Shown: piece by piece, positions 10,607 to 32,000 of the stretch
Numbering within the stretch: position 1 is the stretch's first letter
How the letters are laid out: each line of letters begins with the position of its first letter
Source of the DNA: Nitrosomonas europaea
GTDB lineage: Bacteria > Pseudomonadota > Gammaproteobacteria > Burkholderiales > Nitrosomonadaceae
DNA: 32,000 nucleotides
Assembly (NCBI RefSeq): GCF_900167395.1
Contig: NZ_FUWK01000029.1
Coordinates: forward strand, 7,192-39,191
Direction: 5' to 3'
Notes under the pieces: generated by a model
Database searches by the model: none
Told to the model about the DNA's origin: nothing
Seen by the model: only the letters and a program-made list of their open reading frames with translations
Position numbers and translations under genes: made by a program

Positions 10607-10643
10607 AGCCGCGCAGTGTCGCACAATTCGCGGCCCGTTAGAC
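10582..10643 (+). other. attC-like recombination site overlapping the methyltransferase stop
   Basis: GGTCAAC (R''-like) ... GCTGCGCG-ATAAAGC-CGCGCAG hairpin ... GTTAGAC (a perfect GTTRRRY). GTCAACG and CGTTAGAC pair with one bulged base. The site is 62 bp long and the next ATG is at 10652. Confidence 0.5.
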
Positions 10644-10651
10644 ACCACAAT

Positions 10652-11080
10652 ATGCGTCTTTGGTCACTTCACCCCAAATATCTCGATCCTCAAGGTCTTG
10701 TCGCCTTGTGGCGTGAATCACTGCTTGCAAAAGCAGTTCTTCGCGGAGAAACCCGTGGCTACACAAATCATCCGCAACTGGAACGATTCAAAGCGCACCC
10801 TCAGCCTCACTTCGCAATCAATTTCTATCTCGCAGCAATTCATGCAGAAGCCACGGAGCGCGGCTATACTTTTGATTCATCCAAAATCGGGCCAGTTTGT
10901 TCAGTGCAACTCATATTAGTCAATAGCGGACAACTTTCACATGAATGGAACCACTTGCAGCACAAACTGGCTACTCGCAGCCCAATCGTGCATGCCCGTT
11001 GGAGTGATCTTGCCTCACCGATCTGCCATCCATTGTTCCATCCGCAGCCAGGGCCTGTCGCTTCATGGGAGCGAGTGTAG
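10652..11080 (+). CDS. pyrimidine-dimer DNA glycosylase/endonuclease V family protein
   Basis: ORF 10616..11080. The likely start is the ATG at 10652, giving MRLWSLHPKYLDPQGLVALWRESLLAKAVLRGETRGYTNHPQLERF. I recognise this as the conserved N-terminus of that family. Confidence 0.7.
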   Translation: MRLWSLHPKYLDPQGLVALWRESLLAKAVLRGETRGYTNHPQLERFKAHPQPHFAINFYLAAIHAEATERGYTFDSSKIGPVCSVQLILVNSGQLSHEWNHLQHKLATRSPIVHARWSDLASPICHPLFHPQPGPVASWERV

Positions 11081-11610: not shown

Positions 11611-14600
11611 TCACAGATCGGGTTGTTGCAGCACCCATTCGTGCAGTGATACGTAGTCGGTTTTTCCGGTAGCGAGCAGCGGTAGCTTGTCGATGTACAG
11701 GATGCTCTTCGGTATTCCCAGTTCTCCCAGGCCATTCTGGTTGAAATAAGCAACGATTTCGCTGCGGTCCGCCGGTTGGCGGGTTGTGATCAGAACGAGC
11801 TGTTCGCCTTTTCTGGCATCGGGAATCTGAATGACAGCATGGCTGTAGTCCGGCCACAGCTGATGGATCGATTCTTCTATGGCCGGCAGTGAAATCATTT
11901 CCCCGCCTATTTTGGCAAACCGCTTGGCGCGCCCTTTGATGAAAACGTAGCCTTCTTCGTTGATTTCAACGATGTCGCCGGTATCATGCCAGCCCTCGAC
12001 AGGGGGTATGACCATCCCGGGGTTGGCTGCCAGATAGTAGCCCAGCATCACATTCGGGCCGGATACCAGTAGTTTGCCCCCTTGCGTGATTCCCGGAACA
12101 GGTTCCAGTTTGCTGGAAATGCCGGGTAGCAGGCGGCCGACTGATCCGGGATGGTTGTGCATGGGGGTGTTCAAACTGAGGATCGGAGCAGTTTCAGTTG
12201 TGCCATAGCCTTCGAAGATACGCACACCAAAATTCTCCGACCACAGTCTGCGTGTGCTTTCCCGCAATTTTTCGGCGCCGGCAAATGCGTAACGAACGCT
12301 GTAAAAATCGTAGGCGTTGGCATGGCGCGCATAACCGGCGAGGAAAGTATCAGTACCGAACAGCAGGTTGCATTGGTGTCGTAGATCAGCTCGGGAATGA
12401 CGCGGTAATGCAGAGGAGACGGGTACAGAAAGACCCGCATACCGGACAGTACCGGCAGCAGCATGCCGCCTGTCAATCCAAAGGAATGGAAGAGGGGCAG
12501 TGCATTGAATACCAGGTCAGTCGGGCCGAAATCGATCCGGGCGGATACCTGGAAACGATTGGCCTGCAGGTTGGTATGGCTGAGCACCACGCCTTTGGGT
12601 ACGTCTTCCGATCCGGAAGTGAACAGGACGACTGCCGGTGCATCCGGATTACGCCGGGAATGGGTATAGCGATAACTGATTCCCGGCAGCAGGCTTGCTA
12701 CCAGCCCTGCCAGTTTGTGCCACCAGTGCACCTGATGTTTCAGATCTTCCAGATAGATCAGTGTGATCTGCTGTGCTTTCAGACTGTCGGCCAGTCCGGT
12801 CAGTTTGGCGGCTTCGATGAATCTGCGTGCAGTGATGATGGTCCGGATCTGTGCTACCTGGCAGGCTGTCATGAGATTTCTGGGGCTGACCGAAAAATTT
12901 AGGAGGGCAGGTACACGTCCGAAAGCCTGCAAGGCAAAAAAACTGATCACGCTGCTCACCATGTTGGGCAGCATGATTCCCACGTTTTCCTGCGTGTGGG
13001 TATAGCGGCGCAGAACAATACCCAGGATGAAGCTGCGTGTGATCAGTTGAGAATAGTTCAATGGGTTGCGTTCGACATCTTCCGCGATGACGTGCTTTCT
13101 GCCGTGCGTGGCCGCAGCATCGAGCAGTGACTGAAACAGAGTTTGCCGCAGGACATTGCTCTGAAAAATCGTTGTGGTCATGATGTCGTACAGTTTCAGG
13201 CCGGCAGCGCGGCGACGGCGTTTGCCACGGATCGAATCCGGCAGATCGAAGCTTTCCGGCGGCATGACGGTTACGGTGATCCGCGGGAACCAGTGTATCC
13301 TCACCTTCCCTTTCAGTCTGGAGAAGAGCGTGTATTGCGGGCCTGAAAGGCTTACCGGCAACAGTTTTGCCCCGGCCTTATCCGCGATCATGGCCGGGCC
13401 TTCGTAGATTTTCATGAGTGACCCGGTCAATGTCAGCCGGCCTTCAGGGAAAATCACCACCCTGTCACCGTTTCTGACGCGTTCGATCAGCAGACGGGTG
13501 GACAAAGGATTGGTCGGGTCAAGCGCAATGGTGTCCGCCAGAAACAGGAAGGGCCGTACCCACCATTTGCGGGCAATACTGGTGTTGATGGCGAAGCACA
13601 GGCGTTCGGGAAAGCATACGCTCAGCAGTGTGGCATCCAGGAACGACAGGTGATTGGCGACGATCAGCACTTTTTCTCCTGCCTGCCGATAATGTTCCAG
13701 CCCTCTGATTTTCAGGCGATAGAACGTATGGAATCCCCACTGCAGAATGGATCTGGCCAGTTCATACGGCAACAGTCCCGCGATATAAACCGCAACCAGG
13801 CCATTTAACAGAGCGAGGGTGAGAAAGACTTCAGAAACAGTGAAATCCAATGCCAGCATTACGCTGATACCCGCTGCGGAAACCACCATGAACAGGGCAT
13901 TCATAATGTTGTTGGCGGCAATGGCGCGCGAACGGTGGGAGGGTTTCGTATAGTTTTGCACGATGGCATAGAGCGGCACGATGTAGAGGCCGCCGCAGAT
14001 CGAGATGGCCAGCAGATCCAGCAAAATGCGCCAGTGGGCGAATGATTCCAGGAAATTCAGCACGCCGATGAGTGTTCCATTCGCTGCAGGTGTGAATGAT
14101 GTACTGGCAAAATACAGATCGATGGTGAAGATCGTCATGCCCAGTACGCCTAAAGGAACATAAGTTGCGGCCACTTCACCTTTGAGCAGTTTGTCGCACA
14201 GCAGCGCACCGATACCGATTCCCACCGAAAAGAGTGTCAGGAACAGCGTAACCACCTGTTCATTTCCACCAATGATTTCTTTGGCGAAGGTGGGAAATTG
14301 TGACAGAAATGTCGCGCCAAACAGCCAGAACCACGAGACTCCGAGAATGGCGTGAAACACCGTGGTGTTCTCACGTGCCTGCCGGATGAGGGTGCGCGTT
14401 TCTTCAAGCACATGCCAGTTGACGATCGTATCTGCTGCTGCCGGGCGGACCGGGGGAATGAACAGACTGGACAGCCAGCCGGCCAGCGCTATCCCGATCG
14501 TTATGCCGGATACGATCGCCCCTCCCTGCTCGGCCAGAATGAGCAACCCGCCTATGATCGTCCCCAGCAGAATGGCAATGAATGTTCCGGCACTGACCAG

Positions 14601-15044
14601 TGCATTGCCGCCGATCAGCTCATCTTCACGCAACTGGTCCGGCAGGATGCTGTATTTCAATGGCCCGAAGAAAGCGGACTGGGCGCCCATCAGAAACAGA
14701 ATCATCATGAGCAGTATGACGCTATCCAGATAAAACCCCGCCGCCGCGCCTCCCATCAGAATGATTTCGACGAATTTGACGTGGCGGATCAGCCGTGCCT
14801 TATCCCATTTATCCGCCAGCTGGCCGGCAGTAGCGGAAAAGATGAAAAACGGCAGGATGAAAATACCGGCCGCCAGCGTGACCATGATCTGCGGGCTCAG
14901 GCCCGCGTTGTCCATGGTGGTGTAGGTAATCAGAATGACCAGCGCATTCTTGAAAACATTGTCATTGAATGCACCCAGAAACTGGGTAACGAAAAAGGGT
15001 AAAAAGCGTCTGCTCGAAAGCAGCTTCCATTGACTTGGGTGCAT
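11611..15044 (-). pseudogene. aas: fused lysophospholipid transporter (MFS LplT) / PlsC acyltransferase / acyl-ACP synthetase (Aas), with a 1-nt frameshift
   Basis: ORF 12171..15044 carries the MFS N-terminus (RRFLPFFVTQFLGAFNDNVFKNAL), the acyltransferase HX4D motif (VANHLSFLD, ..FPEGRLT) and an AMP-binding domain (LFTSGSEDVPKGVVLSH). After ..ELIYDTNAT the frame is lost. The correct continuation (L)LFGTDTFLAGYARHANAYDFYSVRYAFAGAEKLRESTRRLW..EGYGTTE.. lies in the frame of ORF 11611..12267. The junction is at about 12361-12372, where one base appears to be missing. Confidence 0.8.
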
Positions 15045-19402: not shown

Positions 19403-19452
19403 GGCTGGTTCACTTTAAAATTAAAAAATACAGGTGACCAGCCTTTTTTATT
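19403..19452 (+). terminator. rho-independent terminator after nrdB
   Basis: GGCTGGTTCAC (19403-19413) pairs with GTGACCAGCC (19434-19443) with one bulge across a 20-nt A/T loop. TTTTTTATTTT follows. Confidence 0.6.
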
Positions 19453-19496
19453 TTCAGAAAATCAATTATGCGAGCGAACCGTTCATTTTATTCAGG

Positions 19497-20882
19497 ATGA
19501 AGACAAAATCGAATACCTCACTAGTATTGATTGCCGCAGTAGTATTGGCTTCTCTCTCTGTTACGGTGCAAGCCGGCAGAACTTTAGAAAAAAATATAAG
19601 TATCACTGTACTGGATACGAGACAGTATCAGGTACCACCACACAAGCAGCAGGATGATCTATGGATGCGCGTACGAGCCGGATTTTCCCTGGCGAACATT
19701 CAAAGCCAGGAAGTACGGCAGCACGAAAGCAATTTCAGTAAAAATCAGCGATTCATAGATCATATTGTTGGACGTAGTCAGCGTTATCTGTTTTACATCA
19801 TCGAAGAAGTGGAACGTCGGCGCATGCCGGCTGAGATTGCGCTGCTGCCGATCATCGAGAGCGAGTTTGATCCGGATGCTTACTCTCACAGGCATGCTGC
19901 GGGGTTGTGGCAGTTTGTTCCCTCGACGGCAAAAGCGTTCGGGCTGGAGCAGAACTGGTGGCATGACGAACGGCGCGATATCATCGCGGCTACCCAGGCT
20001 GCGCTGGATTATCTGCAGATGCTCTACAAAATGTTTGGAAACTGGAAGCTGGCACTGGCTGCTTACAACTGGGGACAGGGATCACTGAAGAAAGTGATCG
20101 ACGAAGGTCATGGAGGTAATAAATCTGTCAACTACCAGGAAATCGGGCTTCCGGCTGAAACCAGAAACTATATTTCCAAGCTGATCGCCATCAGAAATAT
20201 CATTGCCAATCCTCGCCGCTATGGCATCAAGCTGAAGCCCATTTCAAACCGGCCTTATTTCGAACAGATCACGATCACCCAGCAGATCGATGTACAACTG
20301 GCCGCTCGGCTTGCCGGAATTTCAGAAAGCGAATTCAATGCGTTGAATCCGGCCTATCACAGACCCCTCATCAAGGCCGAAGATTCTCCACGGACACTGT
20401 TGCTGCCCGTTACCAAAGTCAAAACTTTCGTGGACAACCTCGAAAATTATGACAAGTCACTGGTGTCGTGGCGAATTTACCAGATTGAGCAAACGGAAAC
20501 CTTGCGCGACTTATCCAGCCGGTATCGTATCCCGGTTGCCCGGCTGGCTGAGATCAATGGCATTTCTGAACGTGCTACTCTGAAAAAAGGCCAGATATTG
20601 CTGGTGCCACGTGACGGCAGCAGTGCAAGAGAAATGACCTATCTTGCACACTATCAGCTCAAACAACCGGCACGACCGGCTACGAGGCGCTCTCAATCAT
20701 CGGAAGAACGCATCGTTTATACCGTCAAAAAGGGTGATACGCTCCACGCTATCGCCAAACGCTACGGTATCGATATCAAAACGATCCGTTTATGGAACAA
20801 GGGAAGTGATCAGCTTTCCATCGGGCAAAAGCTTACACTCAAGCTGACATCACCCGCCTTCAGCAGCCCTTATTCTTCCTGA
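19497..20882 (+). CDS. mltD: MltD-like lytic transglycosylase with C-terminal LysM domains
   Basis: ORF 19434..20882. The start is set at the ATG at 19497 because the GTG at 19434 lies inside the nrdB terminator stem. It has a signal peptide (MKTKSNTSLVLIAAVVLASLSVTVQA, with no lipobox Cys) and an SLT domain (LLPIIESEFDPDAYSHRHAAGLWQFVPSTA ... AAYNWGQGSL). Two LysM-like repeats follow (YQIEQTETLRDLSSRYRIPVARLAEINGI and YTVKKGDTLHAIAKRYGIDIKTIRLWN). Confidence 0.85.
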   Translation: MKTKSNTSLVLIAAVVLASLSVTVQAGRTLEKNISITVLDTRQYQVPPHKQQDDLWMRVRAGFSLANIQSQEVRQHESNFSKNQRFIDHIVGRSQRYLFYIIEEVERRRMPAEIALLPIIESEFDPDAYSHRHAAGLWQFVPSTAKAFGLEQNWWHDERRDIIAATQAALDYLQMLYKMFGNWKLALAAYNWGQGSLKKVIDEGHGGNKSVNYQEIGLPAETRNYISKLIAIRNIIANPRRYGIKLKPISNRPYFEQITITQQIDVQLAARLAGISESEFNALNPAYHRPLIKAEDSPRTLLLPVTKVKTFVDNLENYDKSLVSWRIYQIEQTETLRDLSSRYRIPVARLAEINGISERATLKKGQILLVPRDGSSAREMTYLAHYQLKQPARPATRRSQSSEERIVYTVKKGDTLHAIAKRYGIDIKTIRLWNKGSDQLSIGQKLTLKLTSPAFSSPYSS

Positions 20883-23800
20883 ACGATCAGCAGCATCTGG
20901 CCGGAAAATACATAATCACCCTGTCTGCAGCTGATCTGCTTCACGATCCCGCTGACCGGTGCACTCAGGGTGATTTCCATTTTCATGGATTCGATGATGA
21001 TGACCGGATCTCCGGCATTGACCAGTTGTCTGGTTTCGATCAGCAGTTTCCATACAGTACCGGTCACATCTGAACTGATGGCGTATGCTCCGTCGGGTAA
21101 ATCAGGTGCATTTTGCATACCGGGTTTATCAAGCACGCCTTCACCCTCATCGCTGATACTGTTTTCTTCCTGTACGTTCCCGATCTTCCAGCGCTCGCGT
21201 TCAGCCTCAAAAGCCTTTTGCTGACGGGTTTTGAATGCTTGAATACTGTCTGCATGCTGATGCAGGAATGCATGATAGTTGCGCAGACTGAAAACGGTAT
21301 CTTCGGTATGAAGTGTAAAACGCCCGGTGATAAAGTCGTGGCGTAACTCAAGCAGCTCCTGTTCAGAAACAGGGTAAAACCTGATCTGATCAAAAAAGCG
21401 CAGCAGCCAGGGTTTACCGGCGGTAAAGTCCCGAGTCTGACGGTAACGATTCCACATCTGCACTGTTCTTCCGACAAACTGATATCCTCCGGGACCTTCC
21501 ATACCATAAATACAGAGATAGGCTCCTCCTATTCCGACTGCATTTTCGGGTGTCCAGGTGCGTGCCGGGTTGTATTTGGTGGTGACCAGCCGATGGCGCG
21601 GATCGATCGGCGTGGCCACCGGGGCGCCCAGGTAGACATCTCCCAGCCCCATGACCAGATAGCTGGCATCGAAAATGATACGTTTGACCTCATCGATACT
21701 GTCCAGTCCGTTGATACGCCGGATGAATTCGATGTTGCTCGGGCACCAGGGTGCATCCGGCCGGACTGACTGCATATATTTTTCGATGGCAAGTTTTGTG
21801 GCAGCGTCATCCCAGGAAAGGGGTAAATGCACGATACGCGAAGGCATTTCCATATCGTCGCTTGCCGGTAAATCCTTCTCGGCGGTAATGAGTTTATTCA
21901 GGAGATGGTCACGATCCAGAAGCCGCGAATCGAAATGTATCTGCAAAGAGCGAATGCCCGGTGTCATGTCGAGAATTCCGGGCAGATCGCCTTTTTCAAC
22001 ACAGTGCTGCAGCCAGGCCATCAGGGCATGTGCGCGAAAATGCAGTGCGATATCGAGTACCGCTTCGCCATACTCGATCAGCAGATATTTATCCCCGGAT
22101 TGTCGGTAAACCACTTGTACCTGCCCGTTATTTGCCGGAATCCGATGCAGTACAGGATCACTCGGCTCAACCAGGGAAGCAGGAATATCGGGTGGTACGC
22201 GAGTGAAGGAATCCAGCTGCTGGATCATCTTGTCCTGTTGCTTTTCCAGCTTCAGCGCCTGTTCCGCTGTGAGCGGGTGAAAACGCACGCTATCACCAGG
22301 TTTGAGCTGACCGGTTTTCCATAATTCCGCCTGTACGATCACAGCAGGACAGACAAATCCTCCCAGGCTGGGGCCATCCGGGCCAAGGATGATGGGCATA
22401 TCACCGGTAAAATCGATCGCACCGACCGCATAGGGATTGTCATGGATGTTGGAGGGGTGCAGGCCGGCTTCACCTCCGTCTTTGCGTGCCCATTGTGGTT
22501 TGGGGCCGATCAGGCGTATACCGGTACGGCTGGAATTGTGATGCACCTTCCAGTCGGTGGTAAAGAATTCATCGATGTCAGCCCCGGTAAAGAAATCCGG
22601 TGCACCATGCGGACCATACAGGACTCCGATTTCCCACCGGCTGGTGTAGTGGGGAATGTTTTCGGAGGGCAATATGCTTGGCTCAGTATCTTCTGCTGGC
22701 AGGATATGCAGCACATCCCCGGTGCACAGCGCCCGTCCGGCATGCCCGCCGAACTGCCCCAGTGTAAAAGTGGAGCGGCTGCCCAAATAATCCGGTACCT
22801 GAATCCCACCCTTGATGGCCAGGCAGGATCGGCTGCCAAACTGACGGATTTTACCGAATCGTAACAGCGAACCTGCTTTGATGAAGTGAGATCGCCACTG
22901 TTCCAGGGGGGCACCATCCAGCCAGACATCAATGGGTGCTCCACATACTGCAATCAGACTGTTGCAGTTGAATCTCAACGTTGGCCCGGCCAGCGTGATT
23001 TCCAATCCCGCCGAGTCATCGGGGTTTCCAACCAGATGATTGGCCAGACGAAAAGCCAGACTGTCCATCGGACCGGATGGAGGTACTCCTACGTTCCAAT
23101 AGCCTGTTCTGCCCGGGTAATCTTGCACTGTCGTCTGTACACCGGCGTTGAGTACATCCAGGGTATGCGGTTGGTAGTGAAACCCGGAAAGGAATTGGGT
23201 GCTGACCTGCCCGCTGCGGAATACCGTTCCGGATAATACCTGCCTGAGATAATCCAGATTGGTTTCAATGCCGTAGAGCGTGGTTTTGTCTAATGCGGCG
23301 ATCAAACGGTCGATGGCCTGATCACGATTGCTGGCGTGAACGATGATCTTAGCGAGCATTGGGTCATAGAAGGCCGATACTTCACAACCCGCGTCCACCC
23401 AGGTTTCAATCCGTGCAGTTTCCGGAAATTCGACAGCGCTCAGCAAACCACTGGCCGGCTGAAAATTCTTGGCTGGATTTTCCGCATACACACGAGCCTG
23501 TATGGAAGCTCCCTGCAGTTGAATGGTAAATGATTCCAGTGGCGGTAAAGCATCGGCACCCAGCAGCACCATCCATTCGACCAGATCAATGCCGGTCACC
23601 ATCTCGGTGACGCCATGTTCCACCTGCAGGCGGGTATTGACTTCCAGAAAATAAAACCGATCGACCGAGGGGTCGTAGACATATTCCACTGTGCCGGCAG
23701 ATCGGTATTGAACTGATTCTCCCAGGCGTATGGCTGTTTCCTGTAACGCGTTACGGGTTGCTGGCGACAGACCCGGTGCTGGTGTTTCCTCGATCACTTT

Positions 23801-24505
23801 CTGGTTGCGCCGCTGCATGGAACAATCACGTTCTTCTAATGCAATCACTTTTCCACGGCCGTCGCCGAAAATCTGTACTTCGATATGGCGAGCCTGGTCG
23901 ATGTATTTTTCCAGGAACAAGCCGGCATTACTGAAATTACTTTGTGCCAGGTTTTTGACAGACTCATAGGCATCAATCAGCTCTTGCCGGTTGCGGCACA
24001 AGCGCATACCGATCCCCCCCCCTCCTGCCGTACTTTTGAGCATGACTGGGTAACCGATCCGGTGTGCTTCCTCGCAGGCGGTTTCGAGGTGTTCCAATAA
24101 TCCGGTACCCGGCAGCATCGGCGCGTCGAGTTGCTGTGCGAGCGCACGGGCAGTATGTTTCAGACCGAAAGTGCGTATCTGTTCAGGAGTGGGGCCCAGA
24201 AAACAAATCCCTTCTGCGGCACATTGCTCGGCAAATGAAGCATTTTCACTGAGGAATCCGTACCCCGGGTGGATTGCCTGAGCACCGGTGCGGTGTGCAA
24301 CTTCCAGTATTTTATCGGCACGCAAATAACTTTCGCTGGCAAGTCCATCGCCGATACAAATACTGTCATCAGCATCCAGCACATGCCGTGATAGCGCGTC
24401 AGCTTTCGTAAAAACAGCCACACTCCCGATGCCCATCCGATGCAAAGTACGGATAACACGGCAGGCAATGGCGCCCCGATTGGCGATCAGAACTTTTGTA
24501 AACAT
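20870..24505 (-). CDS. uca: urea/guanidine carboxylase, full length (biotin carboxylase + carboxyltransferase + BCCP)
   Basis: 1211 aa. It has an N-terminal ATP-grasp biotin carboxylase (MFTKVLIANRGAIACRVIRT..., KSTAGGGGIGM, EVNTRLQVEHGVTE). AHS2/AHS1-like carboxyltransferase regions follow. The C-terminus has a biotinyl motif (IIIESMKMEI). A guanidine-I riboswitch lies in the 5' leader. Confidence 0.92.
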   Translation of the reverse strand: MFTKVLIANRGAIACRVIRTLHRMGIGSVAVFTKADALSRHVLDADDSICIGDGLASESYLRADKILEVAHRTGAQAIHPGYGFLSENASFAEQCAAEGICFLGPTPEQIRTFGLKHTARALAQQLDAPMLPGTGLLEHLETACEEAHRIGYPVMLKSTAGGGGIGMRLCRNRQELIDAYESVKNLAQSNFSNAGLFLEKYIDQARHIEVQIFGDGRGKVIALEERDCSMQRRNQKVIEETPAPGLSPATRNALQETAIRLGESVQYRSAGTVEYVYDPSVDRFYFLEVNTRLQVEHGVTEMVTGIDLVEWMVLLGADALPPLESFTIQLQGASIQARVYAENPAKNFQPASGLLSAVEFPETARIETWVDAGCEVSAFYDPMLAKIIVHASNRDQAIDRLIAALDKTTLYGIETNLDYLRQVLSGTVFRSGQVSTQFLSGFHYQPHTLDVLNAGVQTTVQDYPGRTGYWNVGVPPSGPMDSLAFRLANHLVGNPDDSAGLEITLAGPTLRFNCNSLIAVCGAPIDVWLDGAPLEQWRSHFIKAGSLLRFGKIRQFGSRSCLAIKGGIQVPDYLGSRSTFTLGQFGGHAGRALCTGDVLHILPAEDTEPSILPSENIPHYTSRWEIGVLYGPHGAPDFFTGADIDEFFTTDWKVHHNSSRTGIRLIGPKPQWARKDGGEAGLHPSNIHDNPYAVGAIDFTGDMPIILGPDGPSLGGFVCPAVIVQAELWKTGQLKPGDSVRFHPLTAEQALKLEKQQDKMIQQLDSFTRVPPDIPASLVEPSDPVLHRIPANNGQVQVVYRQSGDKYLLIEYGEAVLDIALHFRAHALMAWLQHCVEKGDLPGILDMTPGIRSLQIHFDSRLLDRDHLLNKLITAEKDLPASDDMEMPSRIVHLPLSWDDAATKLAIEKYMQSVRPDAPWCPSNIEFIRRINGLDSIDEVKRIIFDASYLVMGLGDVYLGAPVATPIDPRHRLVTTKYNPARTWTPENAVGIGGAYLCIYGMEGPGGYQFVGRTVQMWNRYRQTRDFTAGKPWLLRFFDQIRFYPVSEQELLELRHDFITGRFTLHTEDTVFSLRNYHAFLHQHADSIQAFKTRQQKAFEAERERWKIGNVQEENSISDEGEGVLDKPGMQNAPDLPDGAYAISSDVTGTVWKLLIETRQLVNAGDPVIIIESMKMEITLSAPVSGIVKQISCRQGDYVFSGQMLLIVQEE

Positions 24506-24761
24506 AAATTCCCCTTACTGTGCTACCTGATCAAGCAGGCCATATTGTGATACATGCTGACTGTGCCAGCGGAAACGAATACAGATTTTTTAAAGTCGAT
24601 GGAAAATACAGATCTTCGCTTCCCGTAGAGGGTGGGCCGTGGGCGGGGAATACAGGAAACGTGGTGTAAAGCCGGAGATAGAAGCAGGTAAGCAGATAGT
24701 ACATATAACGAATCTCCAGGAGTCAGGAAATGACAGAAATCAATAATGCATTGGCATTATG

Positions 24762-24862
24762 TAACCTCCCGGGCTTTTATCCCTCCGTGGAGCTTCGTAT
24801 GACGAAGCCTCAAGCTCTCGGACCAGTCACTTTCCCTGGGAAAGCCGGAACCCTAGCCTGAA
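24762..24862 (-). promoter_or_regulatory. guanidine-I (ykkC) riboswitch aptamer, minus strand
   Basis: The reverse complement reads CTAGGGTTCCGGCTTTCCCAGGGAAAGTGACTGGTCCGAGAGCTTGAGGCTTCGTCATACGAAGCTCCACGGAGGGATAAAAGCCCGGGAGG. It contains the ykkC signature blocks CUAGGGUUCCG, GGUCCGAGAG, ACGGAGGGA and AAAGCCCGGGAG. It lies about 257 nt upstream of the carboxylase ATG at 24505. Confidence 0.88.
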
Positions 24863-24940
24863 GTAATTTCAATCAGCCACCAGTACAGTCGATGCCGATG
24901 ATGTCGGTGCTGCTGGCCGTAATCAAAACATATGTGCCAT

Positions 24941-24970
24941 TTTATAGGCAGCTGATCTTTTCTGAAACAA
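24941..24970 (-). promoter_or_regulatory. putative promoter for the minus-strand riboswitch/carboxylase transcript
   Basis: On the minus strand: TTGTTT (plus-strand AAACAA, 24965-24970), an 18-nt spacer, then TATAAA (plus-strand TTTATA, 24941-24946). Confidence 0.35.
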
Positions 24971-24980
24971 TAATATTTTC

Positions 24981-25010
24981 TTGTCTTTCAAAAATTCCGG
25001 TGTATATAAT
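24981..25010 (+). promoter_or_regulatory. putative promoter for the plus-strand riboswitch/permease operon
   Basis: TTGTCT (24981-24986), an 18-nt spacer, then TATAAT (25005-25010). Its -35 lies back to back with the minus-strand -35, about 10 bp away. Confidence 0.35.
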
Positions 25011-25089
25011 TATCACCATGTTTTATCTGTGATGGTTGAAGCTAGGCCATGTCTCTAGGCAGATAAGGCATCAGAAGCACAGTCGTTTC

Positions 25090-25189
25090 ACGAAACTAGG
25101 GTTCCGGCTTTCCCAGGGAAAGTGACTGGTCCGAGAGTTTCGGGCCCTGCCAGCAGGGTTCCACGGAGGGATAAAAGCCCGGGAGGTTA
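25090..25189 (+). promoter_or_regulatory. guanidine-I (ykkC) riboswitch aptamer, plus strand
   Basis: CTAGGGTTCCGGCTTTCCCAGGGAAAGTGACTGGTCCGAGAGTTTCGGGCCCTGCCAGCAGGGTTCCACGGAGGGATAAAAGCCCGGGAGG. It carries the same signature blocks as the minus-strand copy. It lies about 267 nt upstream of the permease ATG at 25456. Confidence 0.88.
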
Positions 25190-25455
25190 TGTTCAATACA
25201 TTAACTACCGGGAGCCAGAGTGGAAAAACTATCGCGTGTGTGCGCTGCAGTTCAGAATCCAGATTTTCCTCATGTTTTTCCTTTTTCATCGATAGCCGAT
25301 TGCCATTTGCCTGTTGGCGTTCGGTTACATATCCATTTTTCCAGTAGCAGCACTTTCGAGCTGATATCTCTTGCTGTCAGGTATTGTTTTCCGGCAGCAG
25401 ATTCCATTGCCTCCTGTTGGCATATAGCGCCCTTAATTTTCAAGGAGGAACCAGT

Positions 25456-26973
25456 ATGCCGGTAGACGAAAAGAAAGGTCCTTTTTCTGCGATCAATAAC
25501 AGATCGGCTGGTGAAGCCGAAGCAGGGGGCGAGATCATTCACGAAACAGGCCAGCTTCGTCGCAGCATGAGCGTATGGAACTGTTTCACGCTGGGGTTCT
25601 CGGTCGTGTCACCGGTAGTAGGGTTATACGCTATTTTCGGAGTCCAGAATCTGGTGACGGGAGGGGGGTGGATTGCCGCACTCATCTTGAGTTTGTTCAT
25701 GCAACTCATGGTAGCAACCGTCTATGCCGAGCTTTCCTCACAATTTCCCATTGCAGGCGGGGCTTATAAATGGTCCCGGCATCTGATCGGGCCCAGAACA
25801 GGGCAGTATGCCGGGGCCATTTATGTCAGTTCGACGATCGCCATGCTGACTACGACTGCGTATACGGGTGGAATGTGGCTTTCCGCGGTGATTGTGGGAG
25901 GAGATATACAGGGAGCCTCGGCAGTCCTGTGGGGAGTTGTATTCCTGTTGATTTGCACCACAGTCAACATAGTAAATCAGAAAGTTTACAAGGTAATCAA
26001 TCTGCTGGGTGTCAGTGCTGAAGTCTTGGGTTCGATATGTGTGGCACTGGTCCTGTTTTTCTTCTTTCGAATCTATCCGGTTTCGGAGTTATTTCAACAT
26101 CTGGGCACGGGACTTGCACCCACCAGCCTGACTGCCTTCCTGGCAGCATTGGCCATCGCAGGCTGGGCATTCATCGGTTTTGATTCCTGCTCGACTATTG
26201 CTGAGGAAGCACACAATCCCGAAAGAATGATTCCACGTGCAATCTTCTTGTCTCTGCTGGCAGTAGGCAGTGTAGTGCTCTTCAATTCCTCTGCCCTAAC
26301 GTTGTCGATCAGTCACGATACGCTGGTCGAGGCCAGCGCTACATCCGACCCTATCTCGCCGATCATTACCAGCACGATCGGAGCCTGGGCCGCAAAACCG
26401 TTTCTGGTGATTGTCATGACAGCCTTTCTTTCCTGCGGATCCTCAGTGGTCAATTACGTTTCACGCATCGTTTTTTCGATGGCGCGTGAAGGTAATTTGC
26501 CCGCTTTCTTTTCACAGGTAACAAGAAAAACGCAACTGCCGCGCAATGCAATCGGCGGGACCGTGCTCATGGCAGGTCTCGGGTTGCTTTTCGGACTGAA
26601 TGACGGGGCCGTTGCAACCATTATCGCTTTCGGTACCGGTGGCCTGTACGCCATGTTTTCCATGACCACGGGCGTTGGTCTATACGCACGCCTGATGGGG
26701 CGGTGGAATCCTGCATTGGGCGCGTTCAGGCTGGGAAGATGGGGGTTGGTGATCAACACCGTGGCTTTTGTCTGGGCATTATTCGAACTGATCAATATCG
26801 GCTGGCCGCGGGAATATGTGGCAGCCCCCGGAGCGCCATGGTGGCAGCTCTGGGCGGTACCTCTGGTGCTGGGCACCATACTGGCTCTGACGACGCTGCA
26901 CGTGCAGATGGGCCACAAGCGTCGGATGAAGAGGGCTCTGAGCGGTACTGTCACGGACGATCTGCAGAAGTAG
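25456..26973 (+). CDS. APC-superfamily amino acid/polyamine-type permease (candidate guanidine or urea importer)
   Basis: ORF 25384..26973. The start is set at the ATG at 25456, preceded by AAGGAGG. There are about 12 hydrophobic segments and an APC-like TM1 (FTLGFSVVSPVVGLYAIFG). It is the first gene after the riboswitch. Confidence 0.85.
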   Translation: MPVDEKKGPFSAINNRSAGEAEAGGEIIHETGQLRRSMSVWNCFTLGFSVVSPVVGLYAIFGVQNLVTGGGWIAALILSLFMQLMVATVYAELSSQFPIAGGAYKWSRHLIGPRTGQYAGAIYVSSTIAMLTTTAYTGGMWLSAVIVGGDIQGASAVLWGVVFLLICTTVNIVNQKVYKVINLLGVSAEVLGSICVALVLFFFFRIYPVSELFQHLGTGLAPTSLTAFLAALAIAGWAFIGFDSCSTIAEEAHNPERMIPRAIFLSLLAVGSVVLFNSSALTLSISHDTLVEASATSDPISPIITSTIGAWAAKPFLVIVMTAFLSCGSSVVNYVSRIVFSMAREGNLPAFFSQVTRKTQLPRNAIGGTVLMAGLGLLFGLNDGAVATIIAFGTGGLYAMFSMTTGVGLYARLMGRWNPALGAFRLGRWGLVINTVAFVWALFELINIGWPREYVAAPGAPWWQLWAVPLVLGTILALTTLHVQMGHKRRMKRALSGTVTDDLQK

Positions 26974-27050
26974 ATTGGCAGAAACTCTGTTTACAGCGGT
27001 TGGCTTGTACGGTTATCAACTGAAGTCCAATGATGATGAGGAGGTAAAAC

Positions 27051-27779
27051 ATGAATCAGGTAACGACCTATCTTTGGGAAACACATCTCCCCGGTGGCAG
27101 CCACTGGTCTGGTGTCGTGCGCCGGGGAACGACCTTGCGCCTGACAGATGTGTCAGGCGGGGCCAACGCCGCAGTGTTATTTTACAACCTGGAAGAGAAG
27201 CTGGAGCGTTACAACATGGCTGATACGCTCAAGACCCAACATACTTTCTGTTTAACCAAGGGGCACGCCTGCCATTCCGATATGGGACGGATTTTCTGCT
27301 GTATCACCGAAGATACTGCCGGTTGGCACGATACCGTATGTGGCCTGAGCGATGCTGAGCTGATACAGCAGAAATACGGTACGGGCCGGTATCAGGAGCT
27401 TCGTAATGATATGTACCGTAACGGGCTCGACGGGATGCTGGTCGAGTTGGGGAAATGGGGCCTGGGCAGACGTGACGTGGTTTCCAACATCAATTTCTTC
27501 AGCAAAGTGACGGCCAATTCTGTCGGGGAGCTGCAGTTTCATGTCAGTCACAGCAAAGCGGGTGATCACGTGGATCTGGCGTTTGCAATGGATACACTGG
27601 TGGTGCTGTCCGCTGCACCACATCCGCTCGATCCGGCAGCAACCTATCGTCCCGGTGCAGTTAACCTGGCAGTGTTTCCGTCGACACCTGCAGTAACAGG
27701 AGCCTGTGCACATATCGCGGAGAATGCACGTGGTTTGGAAAATACCCGACGTCTTTATGCTTATGGAGGTGTTAAATGA
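27051..27779 (+). CDS. DUF1989 protein, urea-carboxylase-associated family 2 (carboxyguanidine deiminase subunit type)
   Basis: 242 aa with GAGGAGG upstream. It has [53 protein letters not shown], characteristic of the family-2 member of the DUF1989 pair. Confidence 0.85.
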
Positions 27780-28435
27780 GCGCACAAAACCTGGTTGAAA
27801 GTACACTGAATCCTGATCATGCAGTCATAAACGAGATCTGTGACGCAGGCGAACCTTGGGTCAAGGAAATAAAGAAGGGACAGATATTTCGTATCGTCGA
27901 TCTCGAGGGTAATCAGGCGGTGGATACGCTGTTTTACAACGCACATGATGCAATGGAACGTTACAGTGCCACCGATACGGTACGTCGGCAGCACCGTCTA
28001 TATCTGACGACCGGCAGCAAACTGTATTCCAATTTCGGCAATGTCATGCTCGTCATCACGGCGGATACCTGCGGGCGGCATGATACGGTGGGCGGCGCTT
28101 GTGCAGCAGAAAGCAATACTACGCGCTATGCCCTCGATAAATATCCGATGCACAGTTGCCGGGACAGCTTTCTATATGCCCTGGCACATGACCCGGTGTG
28201 TGAGCGGCTCGGCATGAGCAAGCGAGATGTTCCAGCCAACATCAATTTCTTCATGAATGTCCCGGTAACAGAAGCAGGCAAGCTGGAATTTGCAGATGGG
28301 GTATCAGCCCCGGGCAAATATGTGGAAATGCGGGCTGAGATGGATGTGGTGGTACTGATTTCGAATTGCCCGCAGCTGAATAATCCGTGCAATGCCTATA
28401 ACCCTACGCCTGTTCGCTTACTGGTCTGGAATTGA
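27776..28435 (+). CDS. DUF1989 protein, urea-carboxylase-associated family 1 (carboxyguanidine deiminase subunit type)
   Basis: 219 aa. A 4-nt ATGA overlap with the upstream gene indicates translational coupling. It has [39 protein letters not shown] and [16 protein letters not shown], characteristic of the family-1 member. Confidence 0.85.
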
Positions 28436-28498
28436 TCACCCGTATATCGAACACAGGTATTTCTGAATTTGAACGTAACGCTGGACATGGAGATAACG

Positions 28499-30829
28499 AT
28501 GTCTGAAAAAACGTTGGATACGAACAAGATAGCTGCGCCCACCATCGATGTGCTCGTTCCGGGAATACAAACGACTATCCAGGATTATCCGGGAAGACGG
28601 GGTTACTGGAATATCGGCGTACCACCCTCGGGACCGATGGACAATCTGGCGTTCAGACTGGCCAATCGTCTGGCAGGTAATGAAGAAGGGCAGGCTGCGA
28701 TCGAGATCACTTTTGCCGGGCCAACCTTGCGCATCAACTGTGACACTGTCATCGCGGTGACAGGCGCGCCAATCGAAGTAAATCTGAACGGGAAACCACT
28801 GGCTCAGTGGAAATCGCACGAGGTTGCAGCAGGCGCACTACTTGCGTTCGGTGATGTACTGGGTCAGGGTAGCCGGGTTTATCTGGCAATTCAGGGTGGT
28901 ATTCAGGTACCAGACTACCTTGGCAGCAAGGCTACGTTCATGCTGGGCCAATTTGGCGGACATGAAGGACGCATACTGCAGGCAGGTGACGTGCTGAATG
29001 TCGTGGCAGGTAAGCATGATGGTTATACACCGCGCGAATTACCGCAGGTATCCATTCCGCACTATACCCATCACTGGGAAATCGCTGTATTGTACGGGCC
29101 GCATGGTGCGCCGGACTTTTTTACGGAAGAGGGGGTTGCCAATTTCTTTGCTGCCGATTGGACGGTGCATCATAATTCCGACCGTACCGGGGTGCGTTTG
29201 ATTGGCCCGAAACCCAAATGGGCGCGTACCGATGGCGGCGAAGCTGGATTGCATCCTTCTAACGTTCACGATGTTGCCTATTCCATCGGCGCGGTGGATT
29301 TCACCGGGGATCTGCCGGTGATACTCGGTCCGGATGGTCCCAGTCTGGGGGGCTTTGTCTGCCTGGTGACCCTTGTCCATGCGGAATTGTGGAAAATGGG
29401 ACAGCTGCGCCCGGGTGACCGTATCACTTTCCGCCGGATATCAGCTGGCGAAGCTGCAACACTGGAAGCAGTTCAAGATGCGCTCATCAGTGACTTGCGT
29501 TTGCCAGAGGCAGCATCGGTATCGACCAGCGCGAAAGTGGCAGCAACTACTGAAAGCCCGATTTTGCACACTATTCCTGAGAGTAGCGGGCAAGTGCAGG
29601 TGGTTTACCGGCAGGGTGGAGACAGGAATCTGCTGGTGGAATACGGGCCGATGATGCTCGATTTCAACCTGCGTTTCCGTGTCCATGTTTTGATGGAATG
29701 GTTGCAGCAGGCTGTAGAAAGTGGTGATCTGCCGGGAATTATAGATTTGACTCCCGGCATTCGCTCACTGCATATCCGTTTCGACGCAAAATTATTGCCA
29801 CGTAAACGGTTGCTGGATACGCTGATCACTGCAGAAAAACAGTTGCCTGCCATCGAAAATGTGGAGGTGCCGACACGTATCGTTCATCTGCCGCTATCCT
29901 GGAACGATTCGTCCGTCCAGCTGGCGATGAAGAAATACATGCAATCGGTGCGCAAGGATGCGCCCTGGAATCCGGATAACATCGAGTTTATCCGCCGTAT
30001 CAACGGACTGGACAGCATCGATGAGGTCAGACGTATCGTTTTCGATGCCAGTTATATGGTTATGGGGCTGGGGGATGTCTATCTGGGGGCGCCACTCGGC
30101 ACCCCTGTCGATCCCAGACATCGTCTGGTCACCACCAAATACAACCCGGCGCGCACCTGGACACCGGAAAATGCGGTGGGTATCGGCGGCGCTTATATGT
30201 GCGTGTATGGTATGGAAAGCCCCGGGGGTTATCAGTTAGTCGGGCGTACTGTACAGATGTGGAACACGCATGTTCAGACAAAAGATTTCAGGGAAGGCAA
30301 ACCCTGGCTCCTGCGTTTCTTTGACCAGGTAAGATTCTATCCCGTGACTGAAGCTGAACTGGCCGAGATGCGCAAAGATTTTCCGAGCGGAAAATTCACG
30401 TTGCGTATCGAGGAAGATCGTTTCAGTCTGAAACAGTACAACGATTTTCTGAAGGAGAATGCTGCCTCCATTGACACATTCAGAACGAAGCAGAAGGCCG
30501 CTTACATCGCCGAACGCGAACGCTGGAAAGCAGAAGGTCAGGAAAATTACACCACCAGTGAAATTCTGGAAGATGGTTCTGCTCCGGCTGATATTACTAT
30601 CTCGGCAGGAGCGCATGCTATACACACGCATGTAACCGGCATTGTATGGAAATTGTTGGTAAGTGAAGGACAGCGCGTGAATGCGGGCGATGATCTGGCC
30701 GTGTTGGAGTCAATGAAAATGGAATTCACGGTCAACGCGCCCATTAGTGGAGTGATACAGCGTGTATTGAGTAAAGCGGGCAGCAAAGTTACTGCCCGGC
30801 AAGTTCTTTTCGTGATCGAGGGGGGGTGA
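28499..30829 (+). CDS. carboxylase paralog with carboxyltransferase (AHS2/AHS1-like) and BCCP domains but no biotin-carboxylase domain
   Basis: ORF 28469..30829. The ATG at 28499 is preferred because GGAGA sits 5 nt upstream. It aligns from residue about 458 of the 1211-aa carboxylase onward (65 of 93 identical in the first aligned stretch, hand count). A biotinylation motif is present (VLESMKMEF). The 63 nt between the upstream stop and the start hold no ATP-grasp remnant. Confidence 0.85.
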
Positions 30830-30965
30830 AATCATTACTACCCGTGATTATGAGAATCAGCTGGGTACTCTGGAAAAAGTCCATAATGCCGGTGTCAATG
30901 TATGCTGCGGGGTATCGCCAGAGTGGGGGAATCCCGGCGGACTCGCGCTGGCTTAGTGGAACCAG
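30828..30965 (+). pseudogene. bioB: internal fragment of biotin synthase gene (bioB relic)
   Basis: My translation from 30828 gives [28 protein letters not shown]. After a 1-nt slip in a G run at 30909-30912 it continues [15 protein letters not shown]. This matches the BioB segment [43 protein letters not shown] (E. coli, from memory). Only about 45 codons are present, with no start and no radical-SAM CxxxCxxC region. Confidence 0.65.
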
Positions 30966-30967
30966 TT

Positions 30968-31681
30968 TTAATAAAAACTCAATATTGCCTTTGTTCCTTT
31001 GCCGGCAACCGATTCGAAATTAAGTTTCCAGCCAAAGTGGGTACAGATACGTATGATCAGATCAATGCCAATTCCTCCTGATATGTATTGCCCAGACTTA
31101 GCCATTTGGGTATAGATCCTGCTTATCTCCACTGGGGACATACCGTACCCTGGATCATCAATCGTAATTGTTCCAGGGTGCTCTGAATAAATACGGATAA
31201 CACCACGGTCACAGTTCTCGATTGCATTGCGCACCAGGTTACCAATTGCGACACGAACGATATGAAGTGGTGCAACGACTGGTATTGGAGATTCGATTTC
31301 CACAGCTAGAAGCAGGTCTTTTCCCCGACAAAGATATTCGTGATCCGCCACAATGGCCGGTATTTCTGCCCGGACGTCAATGTTTTCGTTATTGTTGATG
31401 AGCGTATCCGGAGCACGTGCAAGCGCGAGAAGAATTTCCACCAGATCTTCCATCTGACTGATGATGCGCCTGGACCGAAGCAGATGAGGCTTAATGGCTG
31501 ACGTGGTATCGGGGTGATCCAGTACTACTTCGGTCACTCCGGACATGGCTGCAATAGGTGTGCGCAACTCATGACTGGCTGTGTTGATGAAATTACGTTC
31601 ACGCTCGACATATTCCTGGATTCGATCGGTAAAACGGTTAATGGCGTCTGCGATAATATAGGTTTCATAAGCTGTAGTAGT
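30968..31681 (-). pseudogene. sensor histidine kinase lacking its N-terminal sensor/TM region
   Basis: ORF 30968..31567 plus in-frame upstream codons to 31681 gives ..ADAINRFTDRIQEYVERERNFINTASHELRTPIAAMSG (H-box), NLVRNAIEN (N-box), DDPGYGM (G1) and GGIGIDL (G2). The open frame ends at a stop at 31682-31684, only about 37 codons upstream of the H-box histidine. An IS transposase gene begins about 100 nt further on. Confidence 0.7.
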
Positions 31682-31684
31682 TCA

Positions 31685-32000
31685 GATTTGATCTGACAGC
31701 AGGTCTTGCCAAGAGGTGGGATTACCCGGTTTGATAGAGGTGCGAATCTTTATCAACCAAACGCGAAAGCGTAAAGGAGTAATCCCATGAGCAGTGTTCA
31801 TCATAAAATCATTAAACACAAGATTGGCTTGCTTAATCTGGCAGCTGAGCTTGGCAATGTATCCCGTGCCTGTAAGGTGATGGGTTTTTCTCGCGATACT
31901 TTCTATCGCTATCAGGCAGCTGTGGAAACAGGAGGTGTTGAAGCTCTGATAGATGCAAACCGACGTAAGCCCAATATCAAGAACCGTGTAGAAGAAGCGA
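31685..32000 (+). mobile_element. left end of an insertion sequence (continues beyond the window)
   Basis: It abuts the truncated kinase and contains a transposase 5' end. The exact inverted-repeat boundary was not determined. Confidence 0.5.
31787..32000 (+). CDS. IS transposase, N-terminal HTH part (partial; IS481-like by recollection)
   Basis: AAGGAG sits 7 nt upstream of the ATG at 31787. My translation is MSSVHHKIIKHKIGLLNLAAELGNVSRACKVMGFSRDTFYRYQAAVETGGVEALIDANRRKPNIKNRVEEA. This resembles the N-terminus of HTH + rve-type transposases. The frame stays open to the window edge, which is why it is missing from the ORF track. Confidence 0.6.
   Translation, partial: MSSVHHKIIKHKIGLLNLAAELGNVSRACKVMGFSRDTFYRYQAAVETGGVEALIDANRRKPNIKNRVEEA

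Follow-up and report, generated by a model that had tools for sequence, protein, structure and literature searches.

The window analyzed here, a stretch of 32,000 nucleotides from Nitrosomonas europaea, contains a locus for guanidine catabolism that is organized in two divergent units. A full-length guanidine carboxylase (GC) is encoded leftward; an APC-superfamily permease, the two subunits of carboxyguanidine deiminase (CgdA and CgdB), and a truncated paralogue of the carboxylase are encoded rightward, and a guanidine-I riboswitch lies in the leader of each unit (Table 1). By coordinate matching, the window is the reverse complement of approximately 2,627,288-2,659,287 of AL954747.1, the chromosome of N. 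europaea ATCC 19718; the 1211-aa carboxylase agrees with the database protein residue for residue, and the surrounding gene order is identical. An earlier reading, made from the letters of the DNA without database searches (hereafter the sequence-only reading), had described a guanidine carboxylase-pathway locus at this place and had suspected an ammonia oxidizer as the host. The family scores of the individual genes support the former, and the exact protein match to ATCC 19718 confirms the latter. The present analysis centers on the truncated paralogue, which lacks the biotin carboxylase (BC) domain and retains the carboxyltransferase (CT) domains and the biotin carboxyl carrier (BCCP) domain.

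Table 1. Features of the guanidine locus of N. europaea and of its flanks, in window coordinates.
Feature	Position	Strand	Family match or remark
mltD, left flank	19434-20882	+	domain/family scan
Full-length guanidine carboxylase (GC), CAD86332.1	20870-24505	-	1211 aa; BC + CT (CT_A_B, CT_C_D) + BCCP; TIGR02712
Guanidine-I riboswitch aptamer, full-length GC leader	24764-24867	-	RF00442, 97.2 bits
Back-to-back sigma-70-like promoter candidates between the aptamers	24939-25010	both	weak consensus matches
Guanidine-I riboswitch aptamer, permease operon leader	25085-25187	+	RF00442, 95.5 bits
APC-superfamily permease, CAD86331.1	25456-26973	+	505 aa; PF13520, PF00324
CgdA, carboxyguanidine deiminase subunit (DUF1989/UAAP1), CAD86330.1	27051-27779	+	TIGR03425, PF09347
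CgdB, carboxyguanidine deiminase subunit (DUF1989/UAAP2), CAD86329.1	27776-28435	+	TIGR03424
BC-less paralogue (CT + BCCP), CAD86328.1, Q82SC7	28499-30829	+	776 aa; partial TIGR02712
bioB relic	30825-30958	+	tblastn with BioB of Nitrosospira Nsp5
Truncated histidine kinase (partial HisKA + HATPase_c, no sensor part)	30968-31567	-	PF02518, partial PF00512
Transposase gene (HTH + rve) of an insertion sequence (IS), right flank	from 31787 (31787-32000)	+	

The full-length protein matches TIGR02712 over the entire model (positions 1-1201 of 1201) with 2021.8 bits (cut-off 1303.85) and contains the full set of Pfam domains. Guanidine carboxylases are recognized in Palatinszky 2024 by Asp at positions 1584 and 1330 of the Kluyveromyces lactis enzyme. 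In this numbering, taken from alignments to PDB 3VA7 and 5I8I, the N. europaea protein carries Asp at 1330 and 1584 (D698 and D956, respectively), together with the equivalent of Lys1605 and an SMKME biotin motif. By these signatures, the protein is assigned to the guanidine-type biotin enzymes of BC-CT-BCCP layout. According to Palatinszky 2024 and a 2025 review, enzymes of the GC family form carboxyguanidine at the cost of ATP, CgdAB turns carboxyguanidine into allophanate and ammonia, and allophanate hydrolase (AH) completes the breakdown.

The sequence-only reading had counted two carboxylases. Two genes of the carboxylase family are indeed present, but the second has no BC domain: its match to TIGR02712 is confined to positions 433-1201 and, with 1135.5 bits, falls below the cut-off of the family. 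Its Pfam content consists of two carboxyltransferase domains and a biotinyl domain, and the BC families PF00289, PF02786, and PF02785 are absent. Over residues 448-1209 of the full-length GC, the paralogue shares 62% identity with it, and the paralogue starts at the exact CT domain boundary, after approximately 20 unrelated residues. The gap between cgdB and the paralogue measures 63 nt and therefore leaves no room for an overlooked BC domain. Lacking this ATP-dependent domain, the paralogue therefore cannot carboxylate alone or charge its own biotin. The likely start is the ATG that opens the 776-aa frame, preceded by a GGAGA ribosome-binding site; CAD86328.1 is annotated from 28487. A TTG start at 28469 (786-aa open reading frame, ORF) was considered and rejected, as a look-up of this ORF found no database record and the database starts are the ATG codons at 28499 or 28487. 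Residues D267, D526, and K547 and the SMKME motif of the paralogue correspond to D1330, D1584, K1605, and the biotin motif, and they are invariant in 46 of 46 aligned clade members. Lys1605 is the general base of the reaction (PMC5770610).

The 47 closest database relatives of the paralogue (73-100% identical) contain only the CT and BCCP domains of Pfam and range from 678 to 784 aa, a few of them being partial. Their named members belong to Nitrosomonas, Nitrosospira, Nitrosovibrio, or an unclassified betaproteobacterial metagenome-assembled genome (MAG), and full-length relatives turn up only at 68% identity or less. Neighbor-joining trees of the shared region group the truncated proteins in a single clade, separated by a bipartition found in 100 of 100 bootstraps (45-taxon subsample, unrooted). 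Rooting on the K. lactis enzyme was unstable: among 50 replicates, the paralogue clade was recovered as monophyletic 28 times and the full-length clade 22 times, so that the unrooted split alone is used here. Across the alignment, 22 columns are at least 90% conserved within each clade but differ between the paralogue and full-length clades. The clearest is position 1322, eight residues before D1330, which is Asn in 100% of the full-length proteins and Val in 100% of the paralogues; others that lie near signature residues in the sequence are 1325, 1335, 1591, and 1592. Compared with its orthologue in a Nitrosomonas-like MAG (locus L009), which shares the operon and its synteny, the paralogue shows a dN/dS of 0.068 over 776 codons, and the other genes of the locus fall between 0.036 and 0.082 (CgdA 0.064, CgdB 0.036); dS is saturated in these comparisons and the values are rough. 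Furthermore, in one Nitrosospira MAG the paralogue has its own guanidine-I riboswitch directly upstream. Taken together, the sequences describe a conserved monophyletic family, seen only in Nitrosomonadaceae and under purifying selection. As judged from its motifs, the paralogue itself is functional, a carboxyltransferase of the guanidine type that brings its own biotin carrier, rather than a decayed gene.

Outside this clade, a 763-aa protein (P0106) was considered as an independent BC-less form and discarded: on its contig, a canonical GC with a frameshift precedes AH and many genes are split, which identifies the protein as an assembly artefact. A standalone CT-BCCP homologue (P0309) occurs elsewhere, and hit lengths suggest CT-only homologues as well; split architectures may therefore not be rare. 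On contig L057 (2847-5012, + strand), a 721-aa CT + BCCP protein without BC, 42% identical to the paralogue, is encoded by a solitary gene flanked by thiamine/lipoate-type genes and a MarR gene, and cgdAB is not found close to it. Relatives of urea/guanidine carboxylase that lack BC therefore occur in unrelated contexts, too.

The permease of the rightward unit has TIGR03428 as its best NCBIfam match, with 167 bits and thus far under the cut-off of 740, and its ATG is preceded by the ribosome-binding site AAGGAGGA; it is presumed to be a guanidine importer, a substrate assigned from the context. CgdA scores 333.7 bits against TIGR03425 (cut-off 205.95) and also matches PF09347, and CgdB scores 345.8 bits against TIGR03424 (cut-off 284.7). 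The two are an adjacent DUF1989 pair, both above the UAAP1/UAAP2 cut-offs, and the start of CgdB overlaps the stop of CgdA by 4 nt.

Both aptamers exceed the gathering score of the RF00442 covariance model (63 bits) and cover the full model (positions 1-107), with E = 9e-17 in the GC leader and 2.1e-16 in the permease leader. Their P1 and P2 stem sequences differ yet pair in each, the alignments containing no non-standard pairs. The ykkC control that the sequence-only reading had assigned to the transporter is thus borne out, but the second riboswitch, before the full-length GC, had been overlooked. Both are listed in the riboswitch supplementary table of Palatinszky 2024, at 2634421-2634524 (GC leader) and 2634203-2634101 (permease leader), together with an additional mini-ykkC elsewhere in the N. 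europaea genome. Between the aptamers, a promoter candidate on the + strand (TTGTCT-18-TATAAT, 24981-25010) has 10 of 12 consensus matches and one on the - strand (24966-24939) has 9 of 12; three promoter-like sites were found against 1.6 +/- 1.5 in shuffled sequences, and the evidence is weak.

The final enzyme of the pathway is missing. The sequence-only reading had noticed no AH in the window, and this holds: none of the 17 large ORFs scanned contains the amidase family PF01425, and tblastn with a Nitrosomonadaceae-type AH found none in the window or in four related loci (best E in the window, 0.017). Beyond the window, two published genome-wide screens likewise report none. In Strope 2011, N. 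europaea is recorded with urea carboxylase and without amidase or urease. Supplementary Table 1 of Palatinszky 2024 lists for this genome the permease CAD86331.1, the "guanidine carboxylases" CAD86328.1 and CAD86332.1, cgdA, and cgdB, and it gives AH, guanidinase, and ureABC as NA. When an AH was used as the query, the best 120 relatives included named proteins from more than 15 strains of Nitrosomonas, Nitrosospira, and Nitrosovibrio and none from N. europaea, N. eutropha, HPC101, NpAV, Nsp5, Nsp13, Nl5, or Nv17; the sole paralogue carrier named there is Nitrosospira multiformis, a species name that covers several strains. A scan of a genome collection by exact peptide patterns of the AH query missed even known Nitrosospira AHs and is uninformative for N. 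europaea.

The distribution of these genes was counted in 88 Nitrosomonadaceae rows of the same Supplementary Table 1, from a paper that covers 145 betaproteobacterial genomes of ammonia-oxidizing bacteria (AOB), and cases at contig edges were left out. In these rows, 14 genomes combine a short GC (~760-785 aa) after cgdB with a separate GC of ~1,210 aa, and AH is absent from all 14; among 43 genomes with a single full-length GC and cgdAB, AH is present in 24, in most of them directly downstream of GC, and absent from 19. The mutual exclusivity of paralogue and AH gives p = 1.2e-4 in Fisher's exact test, a value uncorrected for phylogeny and drawn from carriers in only two or three lineages. 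Urease is absent from the 11 Nitrosomonas carriers and present in the 3 Nitrosospira carriers. The 19 clear AH-less single-GC genomes, two of them complete, are mostly N. oligotropha-like and mostly have urease. In the same table, the two clade B comammox genomes with the carboxylase pathway (GCA_003135435 and GCA_013140715) also lack AH and have urease. The guanidine carboxylase pathway may commonly end in urea rather than in hydrolysis catalyzed by AH.

To the right of the paralogue, the flank agrees with the earlier description (a bioB relic, a broken kinase, and an IS, with mltD on the left). The relic, 134 nt directly after the paralogue, is 72% identical to BioB residues 194-222 and 62% identical to residues 223-238 in two frames, which indicates a frameshift. 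Its origin becomes clear from Nitrosospira. In Nitrosospira sp. Nsp5 (L007, 1935-13375), the order riboswitch-permease-cgdA-cgdB-paralogue is followed by bioC-bioH-bioF-bioB on the other strand, with the full-length GC and a BiuH-like hydrolase after the bio genes and bioA (TIGR00508, 543.8 bits) upstream. In the Nitrosospira MAG contig BAAGBF010000001.1 (L008, 9402-21196), one strand carries a riboswitch, the paralogue, an intact bioB directly 3' of it, bioF, bioC, GC, an Aminotran_3 gene, a second riboswitch, and a permease; by analogy with Nsp5, the Aminotran_3 gene is probably bioA. These arrangements suggest that biotin synthesis is induced by guanidine in Nitrosospira. The relic in N. 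europaea is a remnant of this Nitrosospira-type arrangement of paralogue and biotin genes, cut off by the truncated kinase and the IS. In the orthologous locus of the Nitrosomonas-like MAG, a Usp gene stands in place of the truncated kinase and there is no IS; the kinase marks a rearranged right border.

The hydrolase that follows the full-length GC of Nsp5 (L007, 17835-18731, + strand) is a 298-aa protein of the isochorismatase family with BiuH as its best match (278.7 bits, under the cut-off of 370). It may be a biuret- or guanylurea-type hydrolase that feeds the pathway in an AH-less genome. The distant BC-less homologue P0292 likewise has an isochorismatase gene next downstream. At the right edge of the N. 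europaea window, a match to the Rfam family psRNA2 (31606-31785, - strand, 141.5 bits) begins at a distance of 1 nt from the start codon (ATG) of the IS transposase, and its 5' end is the reverse complement of the AAGGAG ribosome-binding site of that gene; no second copy was found in the sequence examined. The supposed small RNA may belong to the IS, as an antisense or terminal feature, and not be an independent gene.

From this evidence, the locus is proposed to encode a guanidine-inducible guanidine carboxylase pathway in a variant that only some Nitrosomonadaceae have, a reading to which we assign a probability of roughly 0.7. Guanidine would induce both units through their riboswitches and would be brought in by the permease. 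The full-length GC would carboxylate it, spending ATP, and CgdAB would convert the carboxyguanidine into allophanate and one ammonia. Without AH or urease, allophanate would lose CO2 and the remaining two nitrogens would exit as urea. As the genome has neither enzyme, only one of the three nitrogens of guanidine is therefore predicted to be released as ammonia, and only this one would reach ammonia monooxygenase; the predicted stoichiometry per guanidine is one NH3 (leading to nitrite) and one urea. A bearing of this ammonia on energy metabolism, proposed in the sequence-only reading, is conjectural. In the favored, still tentative reading of the paralogue, the full-length GC, induced at the same time, would use its BC domain to charge the biotin of the paralogue in trans; this reading has a little under an even chance of being right. 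Such charging fits because every carrier genome in the rows counted (14 of 14) also has a full-length GC. In this case the paralogue would serve as an additional module for carboxyl transfer and might accept a shifted range of substrates.

Several points weigh against this interpretation. A terminator scan and the folding of the leaders revealed no clear expression platform or intrinsic terminator after either aptamer, the folded leaders of ~260 nt forming just A/U-rich hairpins directly after each. The absence of AH from the whole genome rests on the two published screens and one indirect search. The spontaneous decarboxylation of allophanate to urea is taken from general chemical knowledge. 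The K. lactis urea carboxylase is monomeric, so that no traffic of biotin between subunits is known in the family. Moreover, charging in trans leaves unexplained both the exclusivity of paralogue and AH and the 22 clade-specific substitutions, several of which stand beside signature residues. Finally, no experimental work on the locus was found in a literature search that included the guessed locus tags NE2416-2421.

Fusion of CT and BCCP without BC is the layout of the alpha subunits of biotin-dependent decarboxylases and of transcarboxylases, and the paralogue could accordingly be an ATP-independent allophanate:guanidine transcarboxylase. It would take the carboxyl group of allophanate onto its own biotin, release urea, and pass the carboxyl to a new guanidine; together with CgdAB, the net reaction would be guanidine + H2O -> urea + NH3 with CO2 as a catalyst, the full-length GC would just prime and top up the cycle, and AH would be unneeded. 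Such recycling would account for the separation of paralogue and AH (in the table rows, none of the 14 carrier genomes has AH, compared with 24 of the 43 that have a single GC) and for the guanidine riboswitches beside biotin-synthesis genes in Nitrosospira. The CT site and biotin motif of the paralogue are intact, the gene sits in the operon slot that GC followed by AH takes in canonical AOB loci, and clade-specific changes flank the substrate-signature residue, such as the fully fixed Asn-to-Val exchange ahead of D1330. A lithotroph without urease that gains one NH3 per guanidine would presumably profit from sparing ATP. Nevertheless, we regard this proposal as unlikely. All 46 aligned paralogues keep the guanidine-type Asp1330; as Asn, found in urea- and allophanate-handling enzymes, would be expected of an allophanate- or urea-specific CT, this counts against the simplest form of recycling. 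AH is also missing from at least 19 single-GC AOB genomes of the table without the paralogue and is therefore dispensable in its absence. Since AH is the last gene of the canonical operon and the carriers are confined to two or three lineages, the exclusivity may just reflect two alternative operon types. We know of no precedent for a reversed urea or guanidine CT reaction.

The clade-specific substitutions could instead mean that the paralogue transfers the carboxyl to another guanidine-like substrate (for example, methylguanidine or guanylurea-derived compounds), with either the full-length GC or the housekeeping AccC charging its biotin in trans, and that it widens the substrate range of the pathway. 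Several of the 22 differing positions are close in sequence to D1330, D1584, and K1605, and the guanidine-type Asp is kept. Guanylurea hydrolase belongs to the same superfamily as the BiuH-like protein, an isochorismatase-family hydrolase encoded after the partner GC in Nsp5. This explanation is nonetheless improbable: CgdAB would have to act on the altered product as well, and guanidine is the specific ligand of the riboswitch. A functionless duplicate in decay, with the AH-less locus as a relic of genome erosion, deserves still less credence. The right flank, where the bioB relic and the broken kinase lie next to inserted IS elements, is visibly eroded; older work cited in Palatinszky 2024 found N. 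europaea to be inhibited by guanidine at 1 mM, and the five other AOB strains tested in that study did not use guanidine as sole substrate. However, the frame of the paralogue is intact, its dN/dS resembles that of its neighbors, its catalytic and biotin motifs are unchanged in 46 aligned sequences from two or more genera, and a riboswitch of its own precedes it in the Nitrosospira MAG. By these sequence-based measures of selection, decay of the paralogue is effectively excluded. Charging in trans by the full-length GC thus remains the favored, if tentative, account of the paralogue.

The left part of the window contains a FecI-FecR-TonB receptor-PepSY cluster, an aas-like fusion gene, nrdAB, and mltD. 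The ends of mltD and the full-length GC proximal to their stops overlap convergently by 13 nt (20870-20882), and the same overlap is present in L009. Approximately between 7000 and 11100, the G+C fraction is lower (0.46-0.49 versus ~0.54), and the gene content is limited to short ORFs, a methyltransferase, and a gene for a pyrimidine-dimer glycosylase (10616-11080); this stretch may be acquired DNA. At 11611-15044 (- strand), a fusion gene of MFS, acyltransferase, and AMP-binding parts (aas/LplT-like) is split into ORFs of 957 and 218 aa that overlap by ~100 nt. One metagenomic relative (L006) has a single ORF of 1144 aa, which suggests that the gene is frameshifted in the type strain as well as in some relatives.

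The gene inventory and both riboswitches already appear in the tables of Palatinszky 2024, and the missing amidase in Strope 2011; therefore, the AH puzzle is not new. The text of Palatinszky 2024 discusses neither AH-less AOB nor the loss of the BC domain, and no description of a BC-less form of guanidine carboxylase was found in the literature searched. New relative to that literature is the recognition of a conserved BC-less family of guanidine-type CT-BCCP proteins specific to AH-less Nitrosomonadaceae loci. The use of guanidine by nitrifiers has been a topic since 2024, when the betaproteobacterial AOB were treated as having one ATP-costly carboxylase pathway. A distinct version occurs in the model organism N. 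europaea and in no fewer than 13 further genomes; it has no AH and includes an extra, strongly conserved CT/biotin-carrier protein that is unable to use ATP. If the paralogue only adds capacity, the consequence is modest: guanidine should yield one ammonia and one urea, and the published tables over-count the "guanidine carboxylases" of N. europaea. If carboxyl recycling were true, a new mechanism of biotin enzymes would be at hand and the energy accounting of guanidine-driven nitrification would change.

Among known systems, PxpB and PxpC, the 5-oxoprolinase subunits formerly called allophanate hydrolase subunits 1 and 2, are homologous to the CT subdomains of the paralogue, and NCBI names it "5-oxoprolinase/urea amidolyase family protein". 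Unlike PxpC, against whose model it scores only 149 bits (cut-off 500), it has subdomains A-D fused together with BCCP, and no PxpA is present. OadA, PycB, and the transcarboxylase 5S/1.3S follow the same logic as the paralogue, with a CT fused to a biotin carrier and no ATP-grasp domain, and its BCCP part gives weak matches to the models of these proteins. However, its CT is of the KipA/KipI-PxpBC type (PF02626/PF02682), unrelated in fold family to the TIM-barrel CT of OadA and PycB, and the locus contains neither an OadB-like membrane subunit nor a PycA-like separate BC gene. Domain scans found no OadB-like protein in the window; a second CT is present in the full-length GC and would be a candidate partner. 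With the urea carboxylase/urea amidolyase of K. lactis (PDB 3VA7, 5I8I), the CT and BCCP domains align over their full length (E = 6e-206), and the general base Lys1605 and Asp1584 are shared. The yeast enzyme has Asn at 1330 where both N. europaea proteins have the guanidine-type Asp, and, in contrast to it, the paralogue has no BC and no AH, fused or separate.

Among bacterial loci, the AH-less single-GC type of N. oligotropha-like AOB and of the two clade B comammox genomes (permease-cgdA-cgdB-GC) also keeps the pathway without AH in the published table. These loci have only a full-length GC and mostly occur with urease, whereas N. europaea lacks urease and has the extra paralogue. The canonical GC-CgdAB-AH system is known from Pseudomonas syringae, Raoultella, and Klebsiella and, in its AOB form, from Nitrosospira multiformis ATCC 25196 (permease-cgdA-cgdB-GC-AH). 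It shares with N. europaea the control by guanidine-I riboswitches, the biotin carboxylase with the Asp signature, the overlapping DUF1989 deiminase pair, and an APC permease as in other nitrifiers. Relative to it, N. europaea has no AH genome-wide and, according to the published table, no urease; the gene after cgdB is the BC-less paralogue instead of GC and AH, and the full-length GC forms a separate divergent unit with a riboswitch of its own.

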